Source: a plasmid
Assembly (NCBI RefSeq): GCF_055900595.2
Contig: NZ_JBVWEU010000005.1
Strand: one strand, 5' to 3'
DNA: 40,586 bases
The position numbers were made by a program, and so were the translations under genes. The notes beneath the pieces are model-generated. The model made no database searches, was not told the DNA's origin, and worked only from the letters and a program-made list of their open reading frames with translations. Of this stretch, positions 3,429 to 30,059 are shown in pieces; the stretch's first letter is position 1; every line of letters starts with the position of its first letter.

Positions 3429-5459
3429 TTAAGCGCGTTTTATGGGGTTATAGTTTGGACTACCTTTAATATCTGGGTACGACTCCTTACAATTGGGATA
3501 ACCACTGCAAGACCAGAAGTGACCGGATTTTTTGGACGGACGACGAATAAGTCCTTTACCACATACCTTGCATTTGTACTTGTCAGAAATTTGCACACCA
3601 CCGGCAACTTTGATAGCTCCGGCATTAATAACCTTAATCTGCTCTCGTACAAATTTTTCCTGAATCTTCACAAAAGAATCAACGTCACGTTTCCCCTGCT
3701 CTATTTCCAGTAACATACGTTCGTTGATGGCTGTCATTACCGGGCTTTTAACAAGTTCTGGCAGAATGGCTATCAGCCCCCTTCCCAGCTTGGTACTGAT
3801 AATGTCTTTGCCTTTGTTTTCAATAAAACCACGTTTCTTTAAATCAGCAACAATTGTGGCGCGGGTAGCTGATGTGCCAATACCATCACCTTCCCGCAGT
3901 AATTTTTTCTGAGCCGGGTCTTCAACATACTTATGAATATTTTCCATTGCAGTGTTGAGTGTACCGTCATTAAAACGACGCGGAGCTTTAGTTTTAGCAT
4001 CCTGCCGCTGTGCCTGAGCACAAATAATTTCGTCACCATTTCTCATTGATGGAAGAGTCTGTTCAGACTCATTTTCTTTTTCTTCTTCATCCTCTCCATC
4101 TGAATAAACATCCTTCCATCCATTTTTAGTCGTTACGCGACCACCGGCCCCAAATGTTTCACCATTAACATCAATAATAATTGATGTCGCTTTATATTCA
4201 TGTACTGGATAAAATTGAGCCAAGTATGTTCTTACGATAAGGTCGTAAATATTACGCTCTTCTGGCGTAAGCCTTTCAACGTTACCTTTGTGCATCGTTG
4301 GGATAATGCCGTGATGCGCTGTAACCTTAGAGTCATCAAAAGTTTTTGATTTTACTTTTGGATCAGCCTTATCGATTAGAGCAGCTATTCCCGGATAAGT
4401 AACCCGAAGAGAATCCAGAATTTGAGGTGCATCTGCGTGTTGAGATTCAGGCAAATAAGAACTATCAGAACGTGGATAACTGGTAAGTTTATGCGTTTCA
4501 TAAAGAGACTGGCATATAGCCAGCACTTGCTCACCAGAATAACCAAACTTACTTGAAGCAACAGCGGTGATACTGCCAAGAGAATAGGCTTTTGGATGAT
4601 ATTTTTTCTTTGGCTCTTGCTTATATTCAACAACCTTACCGGATTTTCCGGTTAAAGCCGCTACTAGCTTATCAGCTTCTTTAGTGTCAATAAGCCTTCC
4701 CTCTGAATCAAGCCCTGGCTGATCTTCTCTGGCCTGCCATGCCGCAACAAACGCTCCTTTGTCATGTTTAAAGACAGCTTTAATATTGTGATAAGGAATT
4801 GGTTTGAAGTTTTCAATTTCGAGATCGCGGGCAACAACAAGTGCCAGCGTTGGTGTCTGAACTCGCCCGACCGTCAACAGAACACGCGAGCCACCACGCG
4901 CTGCCGACAACGTGAATCCTCTTGAAAGGTTCATTCCAACCAACCAGTCAGCCCGACCACGCGCAAGAGCTGCACGTCCAAAATTTACATATTTATCGTT
5001 GTTCTCAAGTCCTTTCAACGCCCTTGTGACACTTACCGTATCATTCGCATTACACCAGTAACGCAGAACCGGTTTAGTACATCCCATGTCATCAAGGATT
5101 TCATCAACCAGTAACTGCCCCTCGCGATCTGGATCGCCAGCATTTACAATCGTGTCAGCTCGCTCAACCAAATGCTGGATGGTTTTCAGCTGTTTCTCAG
5201 CATCTTCACGAGGATTAATAATCCATTTTTCGGGGATAATTGGCAGTTCATCTTCTCGCCAGATTTTTTTACCGCTTTCATTACGAGGCACATTGTCTGG
5301 TGTATATTCATCAGGTTCAGCCTGCTCAAACATATGACCAAAACACCAAGTCACATAGTCACTGCCGCACTCAATGTAACCGTCTTTTTTATTGGTTGCG
5401 CCTAATACCTCAGCGATAGCCCTTGCAACCGTCGGTTTTTCTGCAATAAATACTCTCAT
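3429..5459 (-). CDS. traE: DNA topoisomerase III (TraE-like), with C-terminal zinc ribbon
   Basis: 676 aa; N-terminal Toprim (MRVFIAEKPTVARAIAEVLG), C-terminal CxxC...C..C; strong SD (GGGAG); position as in RP4 Tra1. Confidence 0.85.
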   Translation of the reverse strand: MRVFIAEKPTVARAIAEVLGATNKKDGYIECGSDYVTWCFGHMFEQAEPDEYTPDNVPRNESGKKIWREDELPIIPEKWIINPREDAEKQLKTIQHLVERADTIVNAGDPDREGQLLVDEILDDMGCTKPVLRYWCNANDTVSVTRALKGLENNDKYVNFGRAALARGRADWLVGMNLSRGFTLSAARGGSRVLLTVGRVQTPTLALVVARDLEIENFKPIPYHNIKAVFKHDKGAFVAAWQAREDQPGLDSEGRLIDTKEADKLVAALTGKSGKVVEYKQEPKKKYHPKAYSLGSITAVASSKFGYSGEQVLAICQSLYETHKLTSYPRSDSSYLPESQHADAPQILDSLRVTYPGIAALIDKADPKVKSKTFDDSKVTAHHGIIPTMHKGNVERLTPEERNIYDLIVRTYLAQFYPVHEYKATSIIIDVNGETFGAGGRVTTKNGWKDVYSDGEDEEEKENESEQTLPSMRNGDEIICAQAQRQDAKTKAPRRFNDGTLNTAMENIHKYVEDPAQKKLLREGDGIGTSATRATIVADLKKRGFIENKGKDIISTKLGRGLIAILPELVKSPVMTAINERMLLEIEQGKRDVDSFVKIQEKFVREQIKVINAGAIKVAGGVQISDKYKCKVCGKGLIRRPSKKSGHFWSCSGYPNCKESYPDIKGSPNYNPIKRA

Positions 5460-5566
5460 TTGATACTCCCTATTTCTGCCATAAGCACTTTAATTTCTTC
5501 ACTATCAGGGATACATGAATTAATGTTATTTAATTCACAACTGAAATCCTCATTCAAATATTCTTT

Positions 5567-6100
5567 TTACCAGGTCATTACAGGTAATATCGTAGAAATA
5601 ATCTGTGACTTTGTGACCGCGCCGAAATATCTCCCGTCAAATGAAGATGCGCTGCGGTCAGTCATCAGCAACAGTTCTGATTTACCCAACGTGTACACTT
5701 CACGAATGGCGGGCAGTTTACGCCCGCCCGGATCAACACTTAACGGCTTGCTGTAAGGCAATAACTGTCCGTTGACGTAAACACCATCATCACGAAAAGC
5801 AACTTCATCACCTTTAGCCGCTAAAATCCGCTTCATCATCTCGCCATACCCCCCTGGACAAAAGCCGCTGCCGATGTAACCACGCTTCTGTGCCAGTGAG
5901 AAAATAGCCTTTTCAGGCGGGCAGAAAATTACATAGTCGCCCTTCTCTGGCGCTTTCTGGCTGATTTTGTACAAGCCAACAGGGATACTTTTCGTGGTAT
6001 TGATGCGTAACCCGGCGGCATATCCAAAGCCACACACAACTGCACCAATCAATGAAGCCGAAATAACACCAATGGCGGCATAGCGGGTCATTTTTTTCAT
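5567..6100 (-). CDS. traF: TraF pilin-maturation peptidase (signal peptidase-like)
   Basis: 177 aa, N-terminal TM segment, 4-bp overlap with traG stop; position conserved downstream of traG. Confidence 0.75.
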   Translation of the reverse strand: MKKMTRYAAIGVISASLIGAVVCGFGYAAGLRINTTKSIPVGLYKISQKAPEKGDYVIFCPPEKAIFSLAQKRGYIGSGFCPGGYGEMMKRILAAKGDEVAFRDDGVYVNGQLLPYSKPLSVDPGGRKLPAIREVYTLGKSELLLMTDRSASSFDGRYFGAVTKSQIISTILPVMTW

Positions 6101-12798: not shown

Positions 12799-13238
12799 TG
12801 GATGATAAGACGGAAGAACTCATTGCGCTCATTGCTAAAAAGCATGGTATAGCCCTGGATGAAACCGATCCGATTATGGTCGTTCCTACCCTGCTTCGTT
12901 ATTTGCTGGATGAAAGCCAGGAGAAACAGGGTGAAATTCTGGATGAGTTTAAATCCGAGCTACAAAGCGCCCTGATGCAATGGGATTACAGCGCGAAGGA
13001 TAAGGCTGACCGTATCCTTAACGCCGCGCTAAAGGCGAATACGGAAGTAATGGAGCGGGTTTTGACATCTGCCGCCACAGAAACCGCTGTCATAATCAGA
13101 AAGGAAGTTCAGGACGAGATCAGAAAATCGCGGGCGCACATAGAAGGGGCAAGAAAACTTGCCATGATGAATATGGCGGCGGCGGTGATCACCTTAATGG
13201 CTGCTGCCGTCGCATTCATTGCAACGTTTTACAAGTGA
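12798..13238 (+). CDS. traM: TraM-like protein
   Basis: 146 aa, overlapping start/stop with traL, hydrophobic C-terminus; position as in RP4. Confidence 0.7.
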   Translation: MDDKTEELIALIAKKHGIALDETDPIMVVPTLLRYLLDESQEKQGEILDEFKSELQSALMQWDYSAKDKADRILNAALKANTEVMERVLTSAATETAVIIRKEVQDEIRKSRAHIEGARKLAMMNMAAAVITLMAAAVAFIATFYK

Positions 13239-13240
13239 CT

Positions 13241-13253
13241 ATTAGCCGCTAAG
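13241..13253. promoter_or_regulatory. degenerate KorB-operator-like palindrome (ATTAGCCGCTAAG) next to a perfect one
   Basis: 11 of 13 matches to TTTAGCSGCTAAA, 1 bp from the site at 13255. Confidence 0.4.
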
Positions 13254-13254
13254 T

Positions 13255-13267
13255 TTTAGCGGCTAAA
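13255..13267. promoter_or_regulatory. KorB operator (OB) TTTAGCGGCTAAA
   Basis: Perfect 13-bp palindrome matching the RK2 OB consensus TTTAGC(C/G)GCTAAA. Confidence 0.8.
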
Positions 13268-13357
13268 ATTTTGTTATGTTGTAGCGTGCCTTATCGCCAA
13301 CCGGCCTGAACCCCGTTTATCGGGGTTTCGCTGTTTTTAGGGGGTAGGAATTGTTGC

Positions 13358-13385
13358 GGAAAAAAATCCCCGCATGACGGGGATT
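13358..13385 (-). terminator. rho-independent terminator downstream of the kfrA-like gene
   Basis: Hairpin ATCCCCG-CATGA-CGGGGAT preceded on the plus strand by an A-run (a T-run on the minus strand). Confidence 0.55.
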
Positions 13386-13395
13386 CTGTAGCTGA

Positions 13396-14076
13396 TCAAG
13401 TTATTGTTCTTGTAAGGCTCAGACCATTCCCTTTACTTAGTGATGGGGCCTGCTCTCTTTGTAGCTTTTCTTTCTGTTCTTTCGCCTGCTTCCGCATGAG
13501 ATTCTCATGCGCTCGCTGTGCAGCCCGCATTTCATCCCATCCTTCGGCAAGCTCTGGTTTATCATGCCGCACTTTGGCCGTCGCAAGTTCGTGTATACGC
13601 GGGCCATGTAACCCCATCCCGTCATGAATCTCTTTGACAGTTTCCAGCCGGTTCTGCAGGCGACTCAGCAATGACTGTTGTTGTTGTACCTGTGACTTCC
13701 ATTTTGCCTTCTGGCCGGGCAGAGCCAAAAACCCAGGCTGACGACTCATCATCTGCTGCAGAACCGCCTCCTGCTTGTCTATCAGCGATTCCAGCCGGTT
13801 TTCAAGGTTTTCTGCCTGCGTTTCTTTATCCGCTACTGCCGCCTCTACCGCATCCTTATATTCCTGCTCAATGTTACCGGCGTCAGTTTGCGAATCCTGC
13901 AAATGGGAAGGGTCATTGATCAACTGCTGCTGTTCGTCATGCAGTTGCTGTACCTGTTCCTGGATATTTACGGCTTCCGACTCTGCGAGAAGATCAGGTG
14001 TAATATCAGGCTGCTGACGAGGGGAGGAGGTATCCCGGACCGCGCCGGGATTTTTAAATGGGGTAGTTGGCTTCAT
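13396..14076 (-). CDS. kfrA: KfrA-like coiled-coil protein
   Basis: 226 aa, Q/E-rich, predicted long alpha-helical; position after korB as in RK2; perfect SD AGGAG. Confidence 0.55.
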   Translation of the reverse strand: MKPTTPFKNPGAVRDTSSPRQQPDITPDLLAESEAVNIQEQVQQLHDEQQQLINDPSHLQDSQTDAGNIEQEYKDAVEAAVADKETQAENLENRLESLIDKQEAVLQQMMSRQPGFLALPGQKAKWKSQVQQQQSLLSRLQNRLETVKEIHDGMGLHGPRIHELATAKVRHDKPELAEGWDEMRAAQRAHENLMRKQAKEQKEKLQREQAPSLSKGNGLSLTRTIT

Positions 14077-14097
14077 CCGGGACTCCTACGCTATTCG

Positions 14098-14451
14098 CTA
14101 TCTGGAGAACTTCCGGCCCTGCTTCTCTGTGGCTGCTGCTACCTGAGCTTTACCGGAAGTCTGGTCATACGAAATACTTTTTTCCGTACCTACCTCTGGC
14201 AGTTTATCGAAATTTTGGCGATCATGCTTGAAAATCTGCTTACCTACCTGCTGATATACTGATTGCTTATCTGCGTGTAAAATCGGCCCATTATAAGAGC
14301 TGGCTTTATCCGGCCCCTTGGACAGATAAAGCGGGTAAATGCCTGGCTTTATGCTGCCCGCTCTATCAACATTGTCATTTTTCCATTTTCCAGCTTCTTC
14401 GCTTTGCAGCACTCGCTGGCCGTTCATGACAAGAACACGCTGTTTGCTCAT
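14098..14451 (-). CDS. hypothetical protein (first gene of the kfrA-like operon)
   Basis: 117 aa, perfect SD AAGGAG; no recognisable motif. Confidence 0.5.
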   Translation of the reverse strand: MSKQRVLVMNGQRVLQSEEAGKWKNDNVDRAGSIKPGIYPLYLSKGPDKASSYNGPILHADKQSVYQQVGKQIFKHDRQNFDKLPEVGTEKSISYDQTSGKAQVAAATEKQGRKFSR

Positions 14452-14948
14452 GTCGGTGTTACTCCTTGTGTTATCATCAACCGTCTGTATTGAGATAGGG
14501 CTAACTGCTATTTTTAAGTTGAATCGGCAACTGATTACCCAACTACTCTTTAACCATCATCCAGGTATTCTCCGGCCCTATGGATAAATGCCGTTAAAAA
14601 TGCGTTTGTGGGCTTCTTTCAGGCGCTGTTTGTCGAAAGGACCAAGATAGGGCTTTCTTCCAGCTACGATAAGTTAAGAGCTATTGTGTCACGCTCAATC
14701 CCTCATCCCAGCCAGGTTGATAAGGATGTCAGTACTCTGATACAGATATTGGTGTTTTTGCCGCTCATTCCTAATGTTGTTTTGCATGTTGAGTATGGTT
14801 CTTAACTCTCCCTGCGTCACCTTACTCATAAGTAACATCACCGGTAATGATGCGTTTTTAGGAAATAGCCGCCAGGAACCATGAATTCTCTGCCCTGACG
14901 GAACTACATAGCCCTCAGGTTAAATTTTGTTTAGCTACATCTATACAT

Positions 14949-14961
14949 TTTAGCGGCTAAA
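14949..14961. promoter_or_regulatory. KorB operator (OB) TTTAGCGGCTAAA
   Basis: Perfect 13-bp palindrome. Confidence 0.8.
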
Positions 14962-14983
14962 ATTATGCAATAAATAATATTAA

Positions 14984-15010
14984 TAAAAAAAATCCCGCGA
15001 CTGCGGGATT
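14984..15010 (-). terminator. rho-independent terminator after korB
   Basis: Hairpin AATCCCGC-GACT-GCGGGATT with a T-run on the minus strand, 22 bp past the korB stop. Confidence 0.6.
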
Positions 15011-15031
15011 CTGAGCGGAAATTGATACCTT

Positions 15032-16045
15032 TTATCCTTCAATAAGGCAAATTATTTTCACGTTTTCGAGATTTAGCTCTTCTTCTACACCAGTTGAATC
15101 AAACTTAATCCAGGCAAGCCCTTCTTCACTTGGGCGCTTGGTCAGGATAAGGCGGCCCTGCTCCCCCAGGTACTCAACGATAACAATAGCCTTTTTGAAT
15201 TTATCAGGATCGGTTTCCTTTTCTGGCGTCTTACGGACCTTATCGGTCACATCGTTATCATCGTGGCCGTCCGTATCATCTTCGGCAGCTTCCGAATCGG
15301 TACGGCCATTGAAGGCGTCAATGGTGTCTGGATCACGCTTGCTGGATTCTTTTTCGTCCAGGAACTCACGGAAAACTTTCACCGCACTACGGGTAATGTC
15401 TTCACCCTCGTTCTCTTCAAGCAGTTTTTGAACTTCTTCCGGGTCTTGCTTGTAAGCCGTTACCAGCTCATTAACTACGGTAACATCACGGATTGAACCT
15501 TTATTAAAAGCATCTGCTATACAATCCGGCAGGTCCAGCAACGCTGCGTGTTGGGTTACGAACGCTGGCGACTTGCCAAGCCGTTTAGCAATCTGAGATT
15601 TTGATACCCCCTCAGCCAGTTTGCGGCCAATGTGTACGGCAATTTCACGCGCCGTCAGGTCATTACGCTGGATGTTCTCAATGACCTGATCATCGTCGCT
15701 ATAGTCATTATCGATAAAAGCGGGAATTTGTTTCTTCCCGGCCACTTTACTGGCTCGCCAGCGACGTTCTCCATGGTTAATAATATAGCGCCCCGCTTGC
15801 TCCGGGTTCTCGCGAACGGAGACAGGCATTTTCACACCACGCGCTTTAATGGTATCAGCCAGCTCCTTAATGGATTCCTCTGAGAACCCTGGGTTGTCCT
15901 GCTTACGCGGTTGTTCAGGATCGGGATCAATCGCATCAACGTCCAGCATCAGTGGTTTACCCTCAGCACCTGCAGACGCATCAAGAAAGTCGGAGAGATC
16001 ACCAACGGTATCAAGGCCAAGGCCGGAAGAATTTTTTTTAGTCAT
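15032..16045 (-). CDS. korB: KorB (ParB-family partitioning protein and global repressor)
   Basis: 337 aa, ParB-like, acidic linker, follows incC with start/stop overlap; its cognate operators are scattered across the window. Confidence 0.85.
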   Translation of the reverse strand: MTKKNSSGLGLDTVGDLSDFLDASAGAEGKPLMLDVDAIDPDPEQPRKQDNPGFSEESIKELADTIKARGVKMPVSVRENPEQAGRYIINHGERRWRASKVAGKKQIPAFIDNDYSDDDQVIENIQRNDLTAREIAVHIGRKLAEGVSKSQIAKRLGKSPAFVTQHAALLDLPDCIADAFNKGSIRDVTVVNELVTAYKQDPEEVQKLLEENEGEDITRSAVKVFREFLDEKESSKRDPDTIDAFNGRTDSEAAEDDTDGHDDNDVTDKVRKTPEKETDPDKFKKAIVIVEYLGEQGRLILTKRPSEEGLAWIKFDSTGVEEELNLENVKIICLIEG

Positions 16046-16809
16046 TATGCAATCTCCATCTTAGTAAAAACATGATAGGCCAGTGCTCTCATTTCCTGGC
16101 TGGCTTTACGTGCTGCTGTCTTCTTGATTTTCCAGACAGGGACATGTGAAGCCAGTGCATCAGCAATGCTGCTTCGCAACCCGACAGACACAGGAACCAT
16201 TAACGTAGGGTAGGCCGTCTGCAGCTCCTGCAGGTGGTTTACATGGCGAGGATTGCGACCATCTACCTTACTTGGAACCATACCAATAAATTCCAGCTTG
16301 CTGTTCATTTTGCGTTTCACCTGGGTGAAGGTGGTCAGCATTTTTTTAATACCCTGAATTGAGTACACCTCAAGCTCAATAGGGCATACCACAAAATCAG
16401 CGCTCGCCAGCGCAACTATAAGCGCATTGTTAACCGTAGGCGCAGTATCAATCAGGCAGACGTCAAAGCCACTGTCCGCCAGCTGCTGCAGGTTATGGCG
16501 GAACTGCTTCACCATTTCCGGCAGATTTAATTTTTCTACGTTTGCCAGTTGAATATCTGACTCAATGAGAGAAATTCCGCTCTCAGGCATTTGAGTAAAG
16601 CGAGTTGGCTCGATCTCGCCCCACATTTCATTCGCTTTAATGCCGGACGAGAACTGTTTCAGGGTAAAAGAGGCGTTGCCCTGGGTATCCATATCGATTA
16701 CAGCAACCCGCTTGCCTCGTTCTGAAAAATCAAATGCCAGATGAACCAGGGTGGAAGTCTTGCCAACACCACCTTTTTGATTTGCTGTAACCAATACTTT
16801 CATAGCCAT
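16045..16809 (-). CDS. incC: IncC (ParA-family partitioning ATPase)
   Basis: 254 aa, deviant Walker A KGGVGKTS typical of ParA/MinD. Confidence 0.85.
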   Translation of the reverse strand: MAMKVLVTANQKGGVGKTSTLVHLAFDFSERGKRVAVIDMDTQGNASFTLKQFSSGIKANEMWGEIEPTRFTQMPESGISLIESDIQLANVEKLNLPEMVKQFRHNLQQLADSGFDVCLIDTAPTVNNALIVALASADFVVCPIELEVYSIQGIKKMLTTFTQVKRKMNSKLEFIGMVPSKVDGRNPRHVNHLQELQTAYPTLMVPVSVGLRSSIADALASHVPVWKIKKTAARKASQEMRALAYHVFTKMEIA

Positions 16810-16811
16810 CG

Positions 16812-17156
16812 CTATTCTTCCTGTTTACGTTTTGCCTCGTCAGCCCACTTTTTAACAATGAAAGCCTGCCGCTCCGGTAACACTACTTCAATACGCACAA
16901 AACCGTCAGGTACTTCTTGTTTATAGGCATCCCACACTCTGTTAACTGCCTGAGAAACAGCCCCGCGAGAAATATCCAGCGTTTCAACAAAATATTTCTG
17001 CGGTCTTCCTTCAACCAGTACGCCGTAAGCGATATCAAGCGTTTGCTTACCAACATTCAGGCTTCGGGTAACTCTTGCAAATACCTCATTAGTCAGGCGT
17101 TTTTTTTCATTGCCCGTTTTGGCAACATGCGGATCATTATTATTAACAGTCGTCAT
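16812..17156 (-). CDS. korA: KorA-like repressor
   Basis: Track ORF starts at 17213, which would place the start inside the KorA operator; the internal ATG at 17154-17156 has an SD and gives ~114 aa. C-terminus carries the PDGFVRIEVVLPERQAFIVKKW motif also seen in TrbA and KlcB. Confidence 0.7.
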   Translation of the reverse strand: MTTVNNNDPHVAKTGNEKKRLTNEVFARVTRSLNVGKQTLDIAYGVLVEGRPQKYFVETLDISRGAVSQAVNRVWDAYKQEVPDGFVRIEVVLPERQAFIVKKWADEAKRKQEE

Positions 17157-17214: not shown

Positions 17215-17226
17215 GTTTAGCTAAAC
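17215..17226. promoter_or_regulatory. KorA operator (OA) GTTTAGCTAAAC
   Basis: Perfect 12-bp palindrome identical to the RK2 class I KorA operator, upstream of korA. Confidence 0.8.
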
Positions 17227-17357: not shown

Positions 17358-17948
17358 CTAACGACTTAATTTCTTCTTTTTCATTCTGGCCTGCTCAATC
17401 TCTGTCCCAGCGACTTTTTTAAACCAATCAGGCAAATCATTAGAAATGAACTTTGTTTTATCTTGTTCTGTGCGGAAAAGTAATCGCCGTCTGTTATAAC
17501 TGTTATCAAATACCCATACCCGGTCAGCCACGGCCATAGCTTTAGGTAGGTTGGTTACAGAACGCTCGTATCGTCTGAAAATATCATCAACAGGCACATT
17601 ATGACCACCAAGGCTTACACGCTGGTTAACGCGAGCTACTGACATTCCTACATCTTTCACCCCCACATAGATTAAATTAATTTTGTAACCTGCAGTTGCA
17701 GCAAGCTGCATTAACTTAATCTCCCCCATTCCTGTGAGTGTCGTTTCTACAGCGAAAGTACATCTATTTTTGATATTTTCCGTGCGCAGAAAAAGTGCCT
17801 GCTCTCCTGCCTTTCGATTGCTTATACCTTGTTCCCGCGCAATATCATCAGGGTTAACAACCTCTATTTTCCCAAGGATATGTCGCTTAACTAGGGTAGA
17901 TTTTCCTGCACCATTAGGCCCAGCAATAACCCAGAGTTGAGGACGCAT
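17358..17948 (-). CDS. zeta-toxin-like P-loop kinase
   Basis: 196 aa; Walker A AGPNGAGKST at residues 9-18, then IEVVNPDDIA resembling the zeta-toxin hhhDNDxF segment; ATGA start/stop overlap with the upstream ORF. Confidence 0.55.
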   Translation of the reverse strand: MRPQLWVIAGPNGAGKSTLVKRHILGKIEVVNPDDIAREQGISNRKAGEQALFLRTENIKNRCTFAVETTLTGMGEIKLMQLAATAGYKINLIYVGVKDVGMSVARVNQRVSLGGHNVPVDDIFRRYERSVTNLPKAMAVADRVWVFDNSYNRRRLLFRTEQDKTKFISNDLPDWFKKVAGTEIEQARMKKKKLSR

Positions 17949-18199
17949 CAGAGCTTAACCTCAACTACTTTTTCTGTACCAGTCATGAAACTCACCAGTT
18001 CCTTACGGCCATCTGGATATTCTTTTATAACACACCCTTCTGGTGTATTTCGTTCAGCGTAATAAATAGGTACGCCACTAAGAAGATTGGCACGGGCTTC
18101 TTCACCTGCATCATATCCAAGTTGTCTATCAAAAACGGTAAAAAATCGTGCTTCATCAGAAGGTGTCATTTCGGCCAGATGAGATAGATCCATACTCAT
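17948..18199 (-). CDS. small protein translationally coupled to the kinase (candidate antitoxin/partner)
   Basis: 83 aa, acidic; its stop overlaps the kinase start. Confidence 0.45.
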   Translation of the reverse strand: MSMDLSHLAEMTPSDEARFFTVFDRQLGYDAGEEARANLLSGVPIYYAERNTPEGCVIKEYPDGRKELVSFMTGTEKVVEVKL

Positions 18200-28722: not shown

Positions 28723-29613
28723 ATGAAAAAGTCAATTATCTCAGCGTTAATTTTGAGCTTACCGCTTCTGGCTAATGCGGCTCCTGGAAGTGATCCGCTG
28801 GCTGATCAATATTTCTCTAATAATGAACCATCCCTCACACCGCAGGAACAAGCCGCCATCGGAATAGGCCAAAAATGGCAGACTGGTGCTGGTAGCGTAA
28901 CCAGTAAACCATTTGCTGGACCAGACGGTGCTATCAGTTACGTATATACAACAGGGCAGACACAAATTGTCTGCGCTGTACTGCAACTGTGTGACATCGC
29001 TTTACAACCCGGAGAAAACGTCAACAACATTGATGTTGGTGATCCACGCGTAACGGTATCTCCTTCAATCACTGGTTCTGGTGCCACACAGCAATTGCAT
29101 CTAATTATAAAGCCACTTGATGTGGGACTTGATACTTCCCTAGTAGTGACAACTGACCGTCGTACATATCGTATGCGTGTTAAAACCAGCCGCACCAAAT
29201 TTATGCCATATGTGTCTTTTACCTACCCGGAAGATGCCAAGGCTAAATGGGATGCAATTCGGACGCGTGAAGCCAAACAATTGCGTGATAACACAATTCC
29301 TCAAACTGGTGAATACCTGGGAAATCTGGATTTCAACTATAAAATAAGCGGTTCTGCCAGTTGGAAACCCGTTCGGGTATATAACGATGGGGTTAAAACC
29401 ATTATCCAATTCCCTAAAACAATTTCTTCTGGCGAAACCCCAATCCTTCTGGTCGTGCGTAAAGAAGGCGGACTGTTCTCTAAAGATGAAACACAAATGG
29501 TTAATCTGCGAACCCAAGGAGATAGAACTATTGTCGATGGTCTTTTTGACAAGGCATATCTGGTTATTGGTGTCGGTTCGAGCCAGGAAAAAGTGACTAT
29601 CACAAGGGGATAA
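28723..29613 (+). CDS. trbG: TrbG (VirB9-like)
   Basis: 296 aa with signal peptide. Confidence 0.8.
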   Translation: MKKSIISALILSLPLLANAAPGSDPLADQYFSNNEPSLTPQEQAAIGIGQKWQTGAGSVTSKPFAGPDGAISYVYTTGQTQIVCAVLQLCDIALQPGENVNNIDVGDPRVTVSPSITGSGATQQLHLIIKPLDVGLDTSLVVTTDRRTYRMRVKTSRTKFMPYVSFTYPEDAKAKWDAIRTREAKQLRDNTIPQTGEYLGNLDFNYKISGSASWKPVRVYNDGVKTIIQFPKTISSGETPILLVVRKEGGLFSKDETQMVNLRTQGDRTIVDGLFDKAYLVIGVGSSQEKVTITRG

Positions 29614-29615
29614 TA

Positions 29616-30059
29616 ATGAAAGCAGCAATGAAATTAACCTCCGTTATGGTGCTAATCGCAAGCCTGTTAACGACTGGCTGTGTATCTTCGAGTTATGGAA
29701 ACTATTCGAATGCTAACATGTTTGCCTCTGCAAGCATGGCTGATAACACCGTTGTTAATCTGGCAACGCTGTATCCTCCTGGACGTACAACATTCACGAT
29801 GAAACAACCTGCTAAAGATCCTTTCGGTTCAGCACTTGTTCAGCGTTTGCGTTCACGCGGTTATGCTGTCATCGAGTTCACGAAAGACGGCAAACCTCAG
29901 AGCACCTCAGGGACACCTCTTGGTTATGTTGTGAACACTATCGTTCCCAATCTCTACCAAGTCACAGCATTTGTGGGCGACGTCAAATTAAGCCGGGGAT
30001 TCGTTTTGGCAACAGACGGCAAGGCATACCCGGCTGGCCCATGGACTCGCGAGGAATAA
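29616..30059 (+). CDS. trbH: TrbH lipoprotein (VirB7-like)
   Basis: 147 aa, lipobox LLTTGC. Confidence 0.7.
   Translation: MKAAMKLTSVMVLIASLLTTGCVSSSYGNYSNANMFASASMADNTVVNLATLYPPGRTTFTMKQPAKDPFGSALVQRLRSRGYAVIEFTKDGKPQSTSGTPLGYVVNTIVPNLYQVTAFVGDVKLSRGFVLATDGKAYPAGPWTREE

Follow-up and report, generated by a model that had tools for sequence, protein, structure and literature searches.

The 580-bp intergenic stretch that follows korB in a ~41-kb IncP/P-1 plasmid (nt 14452–15031 of the window, i.e., of the whole 40,586-nt stretch of DNA analysed here) contains no annotated gene and is best divided in two parts: ~110 bp of korB-proximal control DNA and ~460 bp (nt 14452–14909) of a dead vbhA-fic module. 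With a probability that we set at about 0.9, both for this division and for the nature of its larger part, the ~460 bp represent the non-functional relic of a class-I Fic toxin-antitoxin (FicTA) module, hence an unannotated pseudogene, as judged from sequence comparison. The stretch is homologous to a module that is intact in related plasmids and bears its lesions, its decay was accelerated and biased towards deletions, and sister lineages lost the same toxin independently. A sequence-only reading of the same DNA had found in the gap only an operator, a half-site and a terminator; on the contrary, ~460 bp of it are recognisable as remnant coding sequence.

The gap and its plasmid setting

The genes flanking the gap are all encoded on the minus strand. 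On its upstream side lie the annotated korA (nt 16812–17156), incC/parA (nt 16045–16809) and korB/parB (nt 15032–16045), the latter coding for a protein with KorB and KorB_C domains, and on its downstream side kfrB (nt 14098–14451), coding for a 117 aa protein with a KfrB domain (Pfam PF18790, 65 bits), and kfrC (nt 13396–14076; NCBIfam NF042916 IncP_KfrC_dom, 167.5 bits versus a cutoff of 99), the second gene of the operon. The limits first assigned to the gap were exact, with korB beginning at nt 15032 and the next ORF starting at nt 14451, whereas the downstream operon, which had been called kfrA-like, is actually kfrB-kfrC according to these Pfam and NCBIfam matches. In the RefSeq annotation of pYDC107_41, an identical and fully annotated plasmid, nothing is reported within the 580 bp. 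The gap is the second-longest intergenic stretch of that replicon, after the 1151 bp that follow trfA and before the 349 bp between traK and traJ, so that its description as unusually long was correct. The 1151-bp stretch would correspond to the oriV region and the traK-traJ one to oriT.

The gap is ~100% identical in ~28 conjugative (MOBP/MPF_T) ~41-kb plasmids hosted by E. coli, Salmonella, Klebsiella and Shigella, the copies being ~100% identical to each other, and it is unannotated in every one of them. The IncP/P-1 "clade II" of Hayakawa et al. (2022; PMC9499019) includes pMNCG082-1, pDS1 and pMCR_1511, and the plasmid of the window would be a member of this clade. The same paper tabulates the presence of kfrA, kfrB and kfrC, with kfrA missing from several of the plasmids tabulated there, and does not mention Fic.

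Some other features of the window should be recorded here. A separate gene of the zeta-toxin family, apparently intact and coding for 196 aa (nt 17358–17948), is located upstream of korA and is overlapped by an 83-aa ORF placed upstream of it (nt 17948–18199); if the two form a toxin-antitoxin pair, the plasmid would retain another addiction module despite the loss of FicTA. A second exact KorB operator is found at nt 13255–13267, just 3' of kfrC and between kfrC and the convergent traM, and is adjoined by a partial repeat, TTAGCGGCTAA, at about nt 13240–13250.

Intact vbhA-fic::kfrB modules and the remnant in the window

In pMNCG082-1 (LC623895), a 65-aa vbhA and a 337-aa fic gene, overlapping by 4 bp, are located between korB and kfrC. 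The predicted Fic protein has a Pfam Fic domain (residues 51–153), the active-site motif HPFREGNSRTLR (tested as HxFx(D/E)GN(G/S)RxxR) and a KfrB domain (residues 272–324), and its last 117 residues (221–337) are the KfrB ORF of the window with 1 aa difference. VbhT is its closest solved structure by sequence (E=3e-32) and also its best NCBIfam match, with 133 bits, far under the equivalog cutoff of 800. VbhA, whose Pfam match (E=0.0015) scores 18.9, lower than the gathering score of 25.9, has the class-I inhibitory motif SLRLEG. The order korA-incC-korB-vbhA-fic::kfrB-kfrC was found undisturbed in 31 PLSDB plasmids, and five alleles of greater divergence have it too. The module was also found in the distant plasmid pAKD4 (44% identity), downstream of kfrA and between kfrA and kfrC, thus indicating that its association with kfrB is old. 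A literature search on KfrB with Fic and on IncP with VbhA retrieved no description of the fusion or of its decay.

The intact modules resemble VbhA/VbhT of Bartonella schoenbuchensis, a class-I FicTA system (PDB 3SHG, 3ZC7), in the small upstream antitoxin, the 4-bp overlap and the SxxxEG motif, as well as in a toxin carrying HPFxEGNxR and an extra C-terminal domain. Unlike VbhA/VbhT, both genes are dead in the window, and the extra domain of the toxin of the relatives is KfrB. In VbhT, the C-terminal domain is a BID domain.

Two observations concern the annotation and the gene content of plasmids with an intact module. RefSeq describes on them a "Fic/DOC pseudogene, missing C-terminus" plus a 117-aa KfrB (NZ_AP025664; L018, nt 984–1430 and 417–770). 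The reading frame there is one continuous 337-aa Fic::KfrB ORF (L002, nt 4217–5230), and the split is probably an annotation artefact. In Salmonella plasmids with the divergent intact allele P0004, the gene for a KfrA_N-domain protein follows kfrC (L012, nt 4649–5707; L013, nt 4620–5711) instead of preceding kfrB.

When the gap was compared with vbhA and the 5' part of fic of pMNCG082-1, megablast returned an E value of 1e-49 and 81% identity in aligned columns, and a tblastn search with the intact Fic::KfrB as query matched the window-type plasmids in three pieces at 82.8% identity. Synteny is identical, and by this homology the remnant descends from a FicTA locus. With respect to the intact allele, the window shows ten deletions (2, 6, 34, 14, 1, 20, 1, 10, 7 and 304 bp) and zero insertions. 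In the vbhA remnant (nt 14765–14909, minus strand, as aligned to pMNCG082-1), the ATG codon (nt 14909–14907) is directly followed by TAG, the Shine-Dalgarno sequence is changed from GGAGG to TGAGG, and deletions of 6, 34 and 14 bp are present, with the SxxxEG motif (SLRLEG) lost within the 34-bp one; indeed, the (S/T)xxxE(G/N) motif by which a FicTA antitoxin is recognised is absent from the window. The remnant of the fic (FIDO) domain of fic::kfrB (nt 14452–14768, minus strand), corresponding to about codons 1–95 plus the linker, carries the deletions of 1, 20, 1, 10, 7 and 304 bp together with frameshifts and in-frame stops. The Fic active-site region HPFREGNSR, by which the toxin is recognised, fell within the 304-bp deletion and is absent from the window. 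A Shine-Dalgarno sequence AAGGAG (nt 14462–14467, minus strand) is preserved 10 nt upstream of the kfrB ATG. An AAGGAG-type internal site and this ATG already exist inside the intact fusion genes: in both fusions examined (pMNCG082-1 and pAKD4), the KfrB part opens with an ATG and is provided with a Shine-Dalgarno sequence, the internal ribosome-binding site of pAKD4 being TCTAGGAGTATTGGAATG.

ORFs of 48–82 aa are present in the gap region, and a missed small protein gene, namely the 48-aa ORF at nt 14695–14841 (minus strand) or the plus-strand ORFs at nt 14608–14805 and 14339–14587, was considered as the content of the gap. We give this option hardly any credit. The 48-aa ORF is chimeric and frame-shifted, joining the 3' end of vbhA to the 5' end of fic; it opens with GTG, and no Shine-Dalgarno sequence was seen by eye. 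The plus-strand ORFs are antisense to the remnant coding sequence and are missing as such from the intact relatives. None of the three candidates reached the Pfam threshold, and the 48-aa ORF had no NCBIfam match either.

Pieces of the relic were also encountered elsewhere. A 166-bp piece of the fic remnant (nt 14514–14678; L017, nt 4001–4166) occurs in 7 E. coli chromosomes with 99.4% identity. In NZ_CP054169, the one examined, the copy is flanked by GTTAAG repeats and has iolR on one side and a partial epmB pseudogene on the other. The chromosomal copy does not have the 1-bp deletion of the window near nt 14646, and it therefore derives from a form of the same pseudogene in which decay was slightly less advanced. 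The possibility that the 166-bp copies are a small mobile element inserted in the plasmid was rejected, the segment aligning to intact fic codons 38–91. In NZ_CP118410.1 (nt 29242–29668), a plasmid of the window type, only 74% of the gap was matched, at 100% identity and in two pieces, so that the relic may there have undergone another deletion or an insertion.

Control sequences between korB and the relic

The korB-proximal block (~nt 14925–15031) comprises a terminator, a -35-like TTGCAT, a KorB operator and the KorA-like half-site ATAGCTAAAC. The corresponding ~125-bp korB-vbhA spacer was aligned over six backbones, whose korB identity to that of the window ranges from ~66 to 99%. The elements conserved across this alignment are the terminator stem, TATTGCAT, the KorB operator, a TATTATAAT-like block, ATAGCTAAAC and GGAGG followed by ATG, and the arrangement is kept even where korB identity is as low as ~66–84%. 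Conservation in related plasmids, proposed earlier as a check on the whole gap, was thus found for the terminator/promoter block and not for the rest.

Terminator prediction placed an intrinsic terminator of the korA-incC-korB operon on the minus strand (nt 15012–14989), in agreement with the terminator already noticed in the gap. The hairpin begins 19 nt past the korB stop and consists of a 10-pair stem (AGAATCCCGC/GCGGGATTTT, 5 of the 10 pairs being G-C) with a 4-nt loop, followed by 8 T; since no T-run follows the hairpin on the plus strand, the terminator is predicted to act one way only. The stem core ATCCCGC/GCGGGA is nearly invariant and the loop variable among relatives (L002, L011, L012, L014, L016), and the first ~60 nt past the korB stop, terminator included, are identical in the window and pMNCG082-1, between which the promoter block can still be recognised.

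The KorB operator reported by the sequence-only reading was recovered at nt 14949–14961 as an exact 13-bp palindrome, TTTAGCSGCTAAA (TTTAGCGGCTAAA), matching TTTAGC(G/C)GCTAAA. It is invariant in all aligned relatives and is one of 12 KorB operator-like sites of the window (≤1 mismatch), against 0.04 expected by chance. By its sequence the site matches the definition of a KorB operator, and it is a candidate for binding by the KorB encoded next door. The KorA half-site indicated near nt 14928 was likewise found, as ATGTAGCTAAAC at nt 14929–14940 (minus strand), where 10 of the 12 positions of GTTTAGCTAAAC, the palindromic IncP-1 KorA operator that overlaps the -10 element, are matched (GTTTAGCTAC at nt 14929–14938); 2.1 such matches to the KorA operator are expected by chance, so that the match taken alone is not significant. 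Its position is kept in the relatives, which have ATATAGCTAAAC there, and the spacing between the half-site TAGCTAAAC and the KorB operator is constant over six backbones. The full KorA palindrome occurs in the window only at nt 17215 and 23025, in class-I-like promoters made of an operator, 3–4 nt, TTGACC, 17 nt and TAAACT, with the full KorA operator.

A putative promoter region for the downstream operon was delimited at nt 14942–14974, with TTGCAT (nt 14970–14965), a 17-nt spacer and a -10 element. In the ancestral layout, which gives the best σ70-like interpretation of the intact allele, TTGCAT is separated by 17 nt from TATTAT and the KorB operator is comprised within the spacer. In the window, the -10 element TATTAT has decayed to TGTATA, with 6 of the 20 positions of the -10 block altered (TATTATAAT to TGTATAGAT), and the best-scoring alternative is TTTATT-N16-TAAAAT (nt 14974–14947), in which the right arm of the KorB operator serves as the -10. 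A consensus promoter scanner retrieved no site in the gap nor in the intact relative (L002), and a scan with a weight matrix of our own was therefore performed. The scores of this simple matrix, indicative only, were 11.4 bits for pMNCG082-1 (L002), 9.9 for the alternative of the window and 13.6 for the korA promoter of the window. In the latter the operator lies upstream of the -35, whereas in the predicted kfr promoter the KorB operator lies within or overlaps the core.

PMC7783346 reports in passing that KorA and KorB repress the kfr operons of IncP plasmids, and on this ground the predicted promoter is read as a kfr-operon promoter, which would be the counterpart of that of IncP kfr operons. 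Like the kfrA-kfrB-kfrC operon of the IncP-1 plasmids R751 and RK2, the operon of the window has KfrB and KfrC homologues, comes immediately after korB and carries a KorB operator, with a KorA-like half-site, at its predicted promoter. It differs from them in the lack of kfrA, in a KorB operator placed within or over the promoter core, in a KorA-like site that is only a half-palindrome and in belonging to a family that has, or had, a toxin-antitoxin module as first element of the operon. The suggestion that the gap is a complex promoter is thus supported for the korB-proximal ~110 bp, conserved in six backbones, and not for the remaining ~460 bp, which are pseudogene.

The presence of a promoter-like region ~470 nt upstream of kfrB implies that a long leader probably exists, and pseudogene-derived leaders can in principle gain regulatory roles. 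The gap could thus encode a small regulatory RNA, as had been proposed, or a structured 5' leader regulating kfrB-kfrC. We consider either quite improbable. An Rfam scan of nt 13000–16500 gave no match at E≤1, the 474-nt leader folds with no unusual stability (z = -0.21), and a repeat search of the gap gave short two-copy, chance-like matches only. Moreover, the sequence of the gap evolves faster than its flanks, decaying ~7-fold faster than the intact allele, and the different, lineage-specific deletions that sister lineages carry in the same stretch imply that no common RNA element is preserved. The pseudogene remains by far the preferred reading: with vbhA-fic dead and kfrB alive, kfrB-kfrC would now be transcribed from the KorB-controlled promoter and read through a ~470-nt non-functional junk leader.

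Decay of the relic, losses in sister lineages and their meaning

Nucleotide identity to pMNCG082-1 is 99.4% for korB, 98.8% for incC, 97.7% for kfrB and 97.9% for kfrC, and the differences in these flanking genes are mostly synonymous. Three intact alleles of greater distance served as outgroups to polarise the substitutions. In a relative-rate test, 81 substitutions of the gap fell on the branch of the window and 11 on that of the intact allele, i.e., a ~7-fold acceleration, while the figures for kfrB-kfrC were 11 and 7, respectively. Changes on the branch of the window were more often GC to AT (44) than the opposite (23). Mismatches in the vbhA remnant are roughly even among codon positions (16, 11 and 16 of 48 sites each); those in the fic remnant (11, 9 and 20 at positions 1, 2 and 3) give an ambiguous pattern, and part of the divergence may predate the loss of function. 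At ~14% on its own branch, the remnant has diverged more than the ~2–8% synonymous divergence of the flanks (estimated from codon counts) would predict, and an extra assumption is therefore needed: either the module was inactivated long ago and its flanks recombined later, or the remnant stems from a divergent allele. Of the five other divergent Fic::KfrB alleles recovered (L011–L016), none was nearer to the remnant than the pMNCG082 type.

These data also bear on the opposite history, in which the window would keep an ancestral standalone kfrB with a long leader and the relatives would have gained vbhA-fic by insertion. A standalone kfrB of ~115 aa is indeed known from the IncP-1 beta plasmid pA81 and from gonococcal pConj. 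However, the window holds a frame-broken vbhA and the first ~95 codons of fic in the correct order, which insertion elsewhere cannot yield; the ten indels are without exception deletions on the side of the window, and 81 of the 92 changes polarised by outgroups are on its branch. As judged from these remnants, an insertion is already contradicted and is the least credible of the alternatives, and decay of a resident module remains the reading that we adopt.

To place the window among its relatives, 109 related PLSDB plasmids were sorted into three states of the locus: a full-length 1333-bp module (31 plasmids), a single 410-bp deletion removing the Fic core (~50 plasmids of the ~50-kb IncP kind, of which PMC9499019 names pMCR_1511 as a relative) and the state of the window (~28 plasmids). 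The endpoints of the 410-bp deletion differ from those of the window, and each lineage keeps sequence that is missing in the other; neither state can be derived from the other, and the losses are thus independent. In the ~50-kb lineage, vbhA is sometimes intact, sometimes broken by a change in poly-C length and, in one case, lost by a further 83-bp deletion. The poly-C tract in these plasmids devoid of the Fic core (L003, L004, L007; columns 224–252 of the alignment) ranges from fewer than 6 C (L004) to ~30 C (L007), the intact allele having 6; this variation could reflect slippage in a gene that had become dispensable, or else an artefact of assembly or sequencing. A third lesion was found in P0007, a metagenomic and read-archive variant, from which the active-site region, and exactly this region, is deleted in frame (50 aa). 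Taken with the deletions of the window and of the ~50-kb plasmids, it implies that the toxin domain was lost at least three times, and kfrB was kept in every case.

Under the proposed history, the kfr operon of the ancestor would have begun with vbhA, followed by an in-frame fusion of fic with kfrB. The antitoxin and the Fic domain would then have been destroyed by point mutations, numerous small deletions and a single one of ~300 bp, and kfrB, now a separate gene, would be the surviving C-terminal part of the ancestral Fic::KfrB. Its survival would be due to a ribosome-binding site and an ATG of its own that were already present. The relic itself would do nothing. In the control DNA next to korB, the KorB operator overlaps the putative promoter core, and the KorA-like half-site is placed just downstream. 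The loss of the toxin was presumably tolerated or favoured. As in other decaying toxin-antitoxin loci and bacterial pseudogenes, loss of the catalytic core is followed by decay of the antitoxin, with deletions only and a GC to AT bias. Unlike in those loci, the window shed only the toxin domain of a two-domain protein, and the C-terminal domain lives on by means of a pre-existing internal start. As a pseudogene with deletional bias, the relic is an ordinary kind of object that would hold little surprise for a plasmid specialist.

Residues 218–324 of Fic::KfrB (L002) match the C-terminal part of the gonococcal Zeta_1 toxin (PDB 6EPH_B, residues 279–388; E=5e-4), so that the KfrB domain is found attached to two unrelated families of plasmid toxins, Fic and zeta. 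It might be speculated, although we regard it as unlikely, that KfrB is a general C-terminal adaptor of plasmid toxins, docking them for instance to the Kfr/partition complex or to the conjugative type IV secretion system, as the BID domain does for VbhT. If so, selection against a transfer- or partition-linked toxin would lie behind the repeated, independent disappearance of the Fic core from enterobacterial clade II IncP plasmids, and the long leader of the window would be a mere scar. Gonococcal pConj carries a standalone parA-parB-kfrB-kfrC, without kfrA.

At the probability given above for the relic, ~28 sequenced plasmids harbour an unannotated vbhA-fic pseudogene. Since such pseudogenes are missed and intact ORFs are split in RefSeq, the toxin-antitoxin content of IncP plasmids carrying resistance genes would be misreported in both directions. 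In clade II IncP plasmids, a toxin-antitoxin module appears to stand, or to have stood, at the head of the KorA/KorB-controlled kfr operon, in the place that kfrA has in classical IncP-1. The locus would offer a natural series, from the intact module through loss of the toxin core and decay of the antitoxin to full decay, in which a plasmid addiction module is lost while the domain attached to it is kept.
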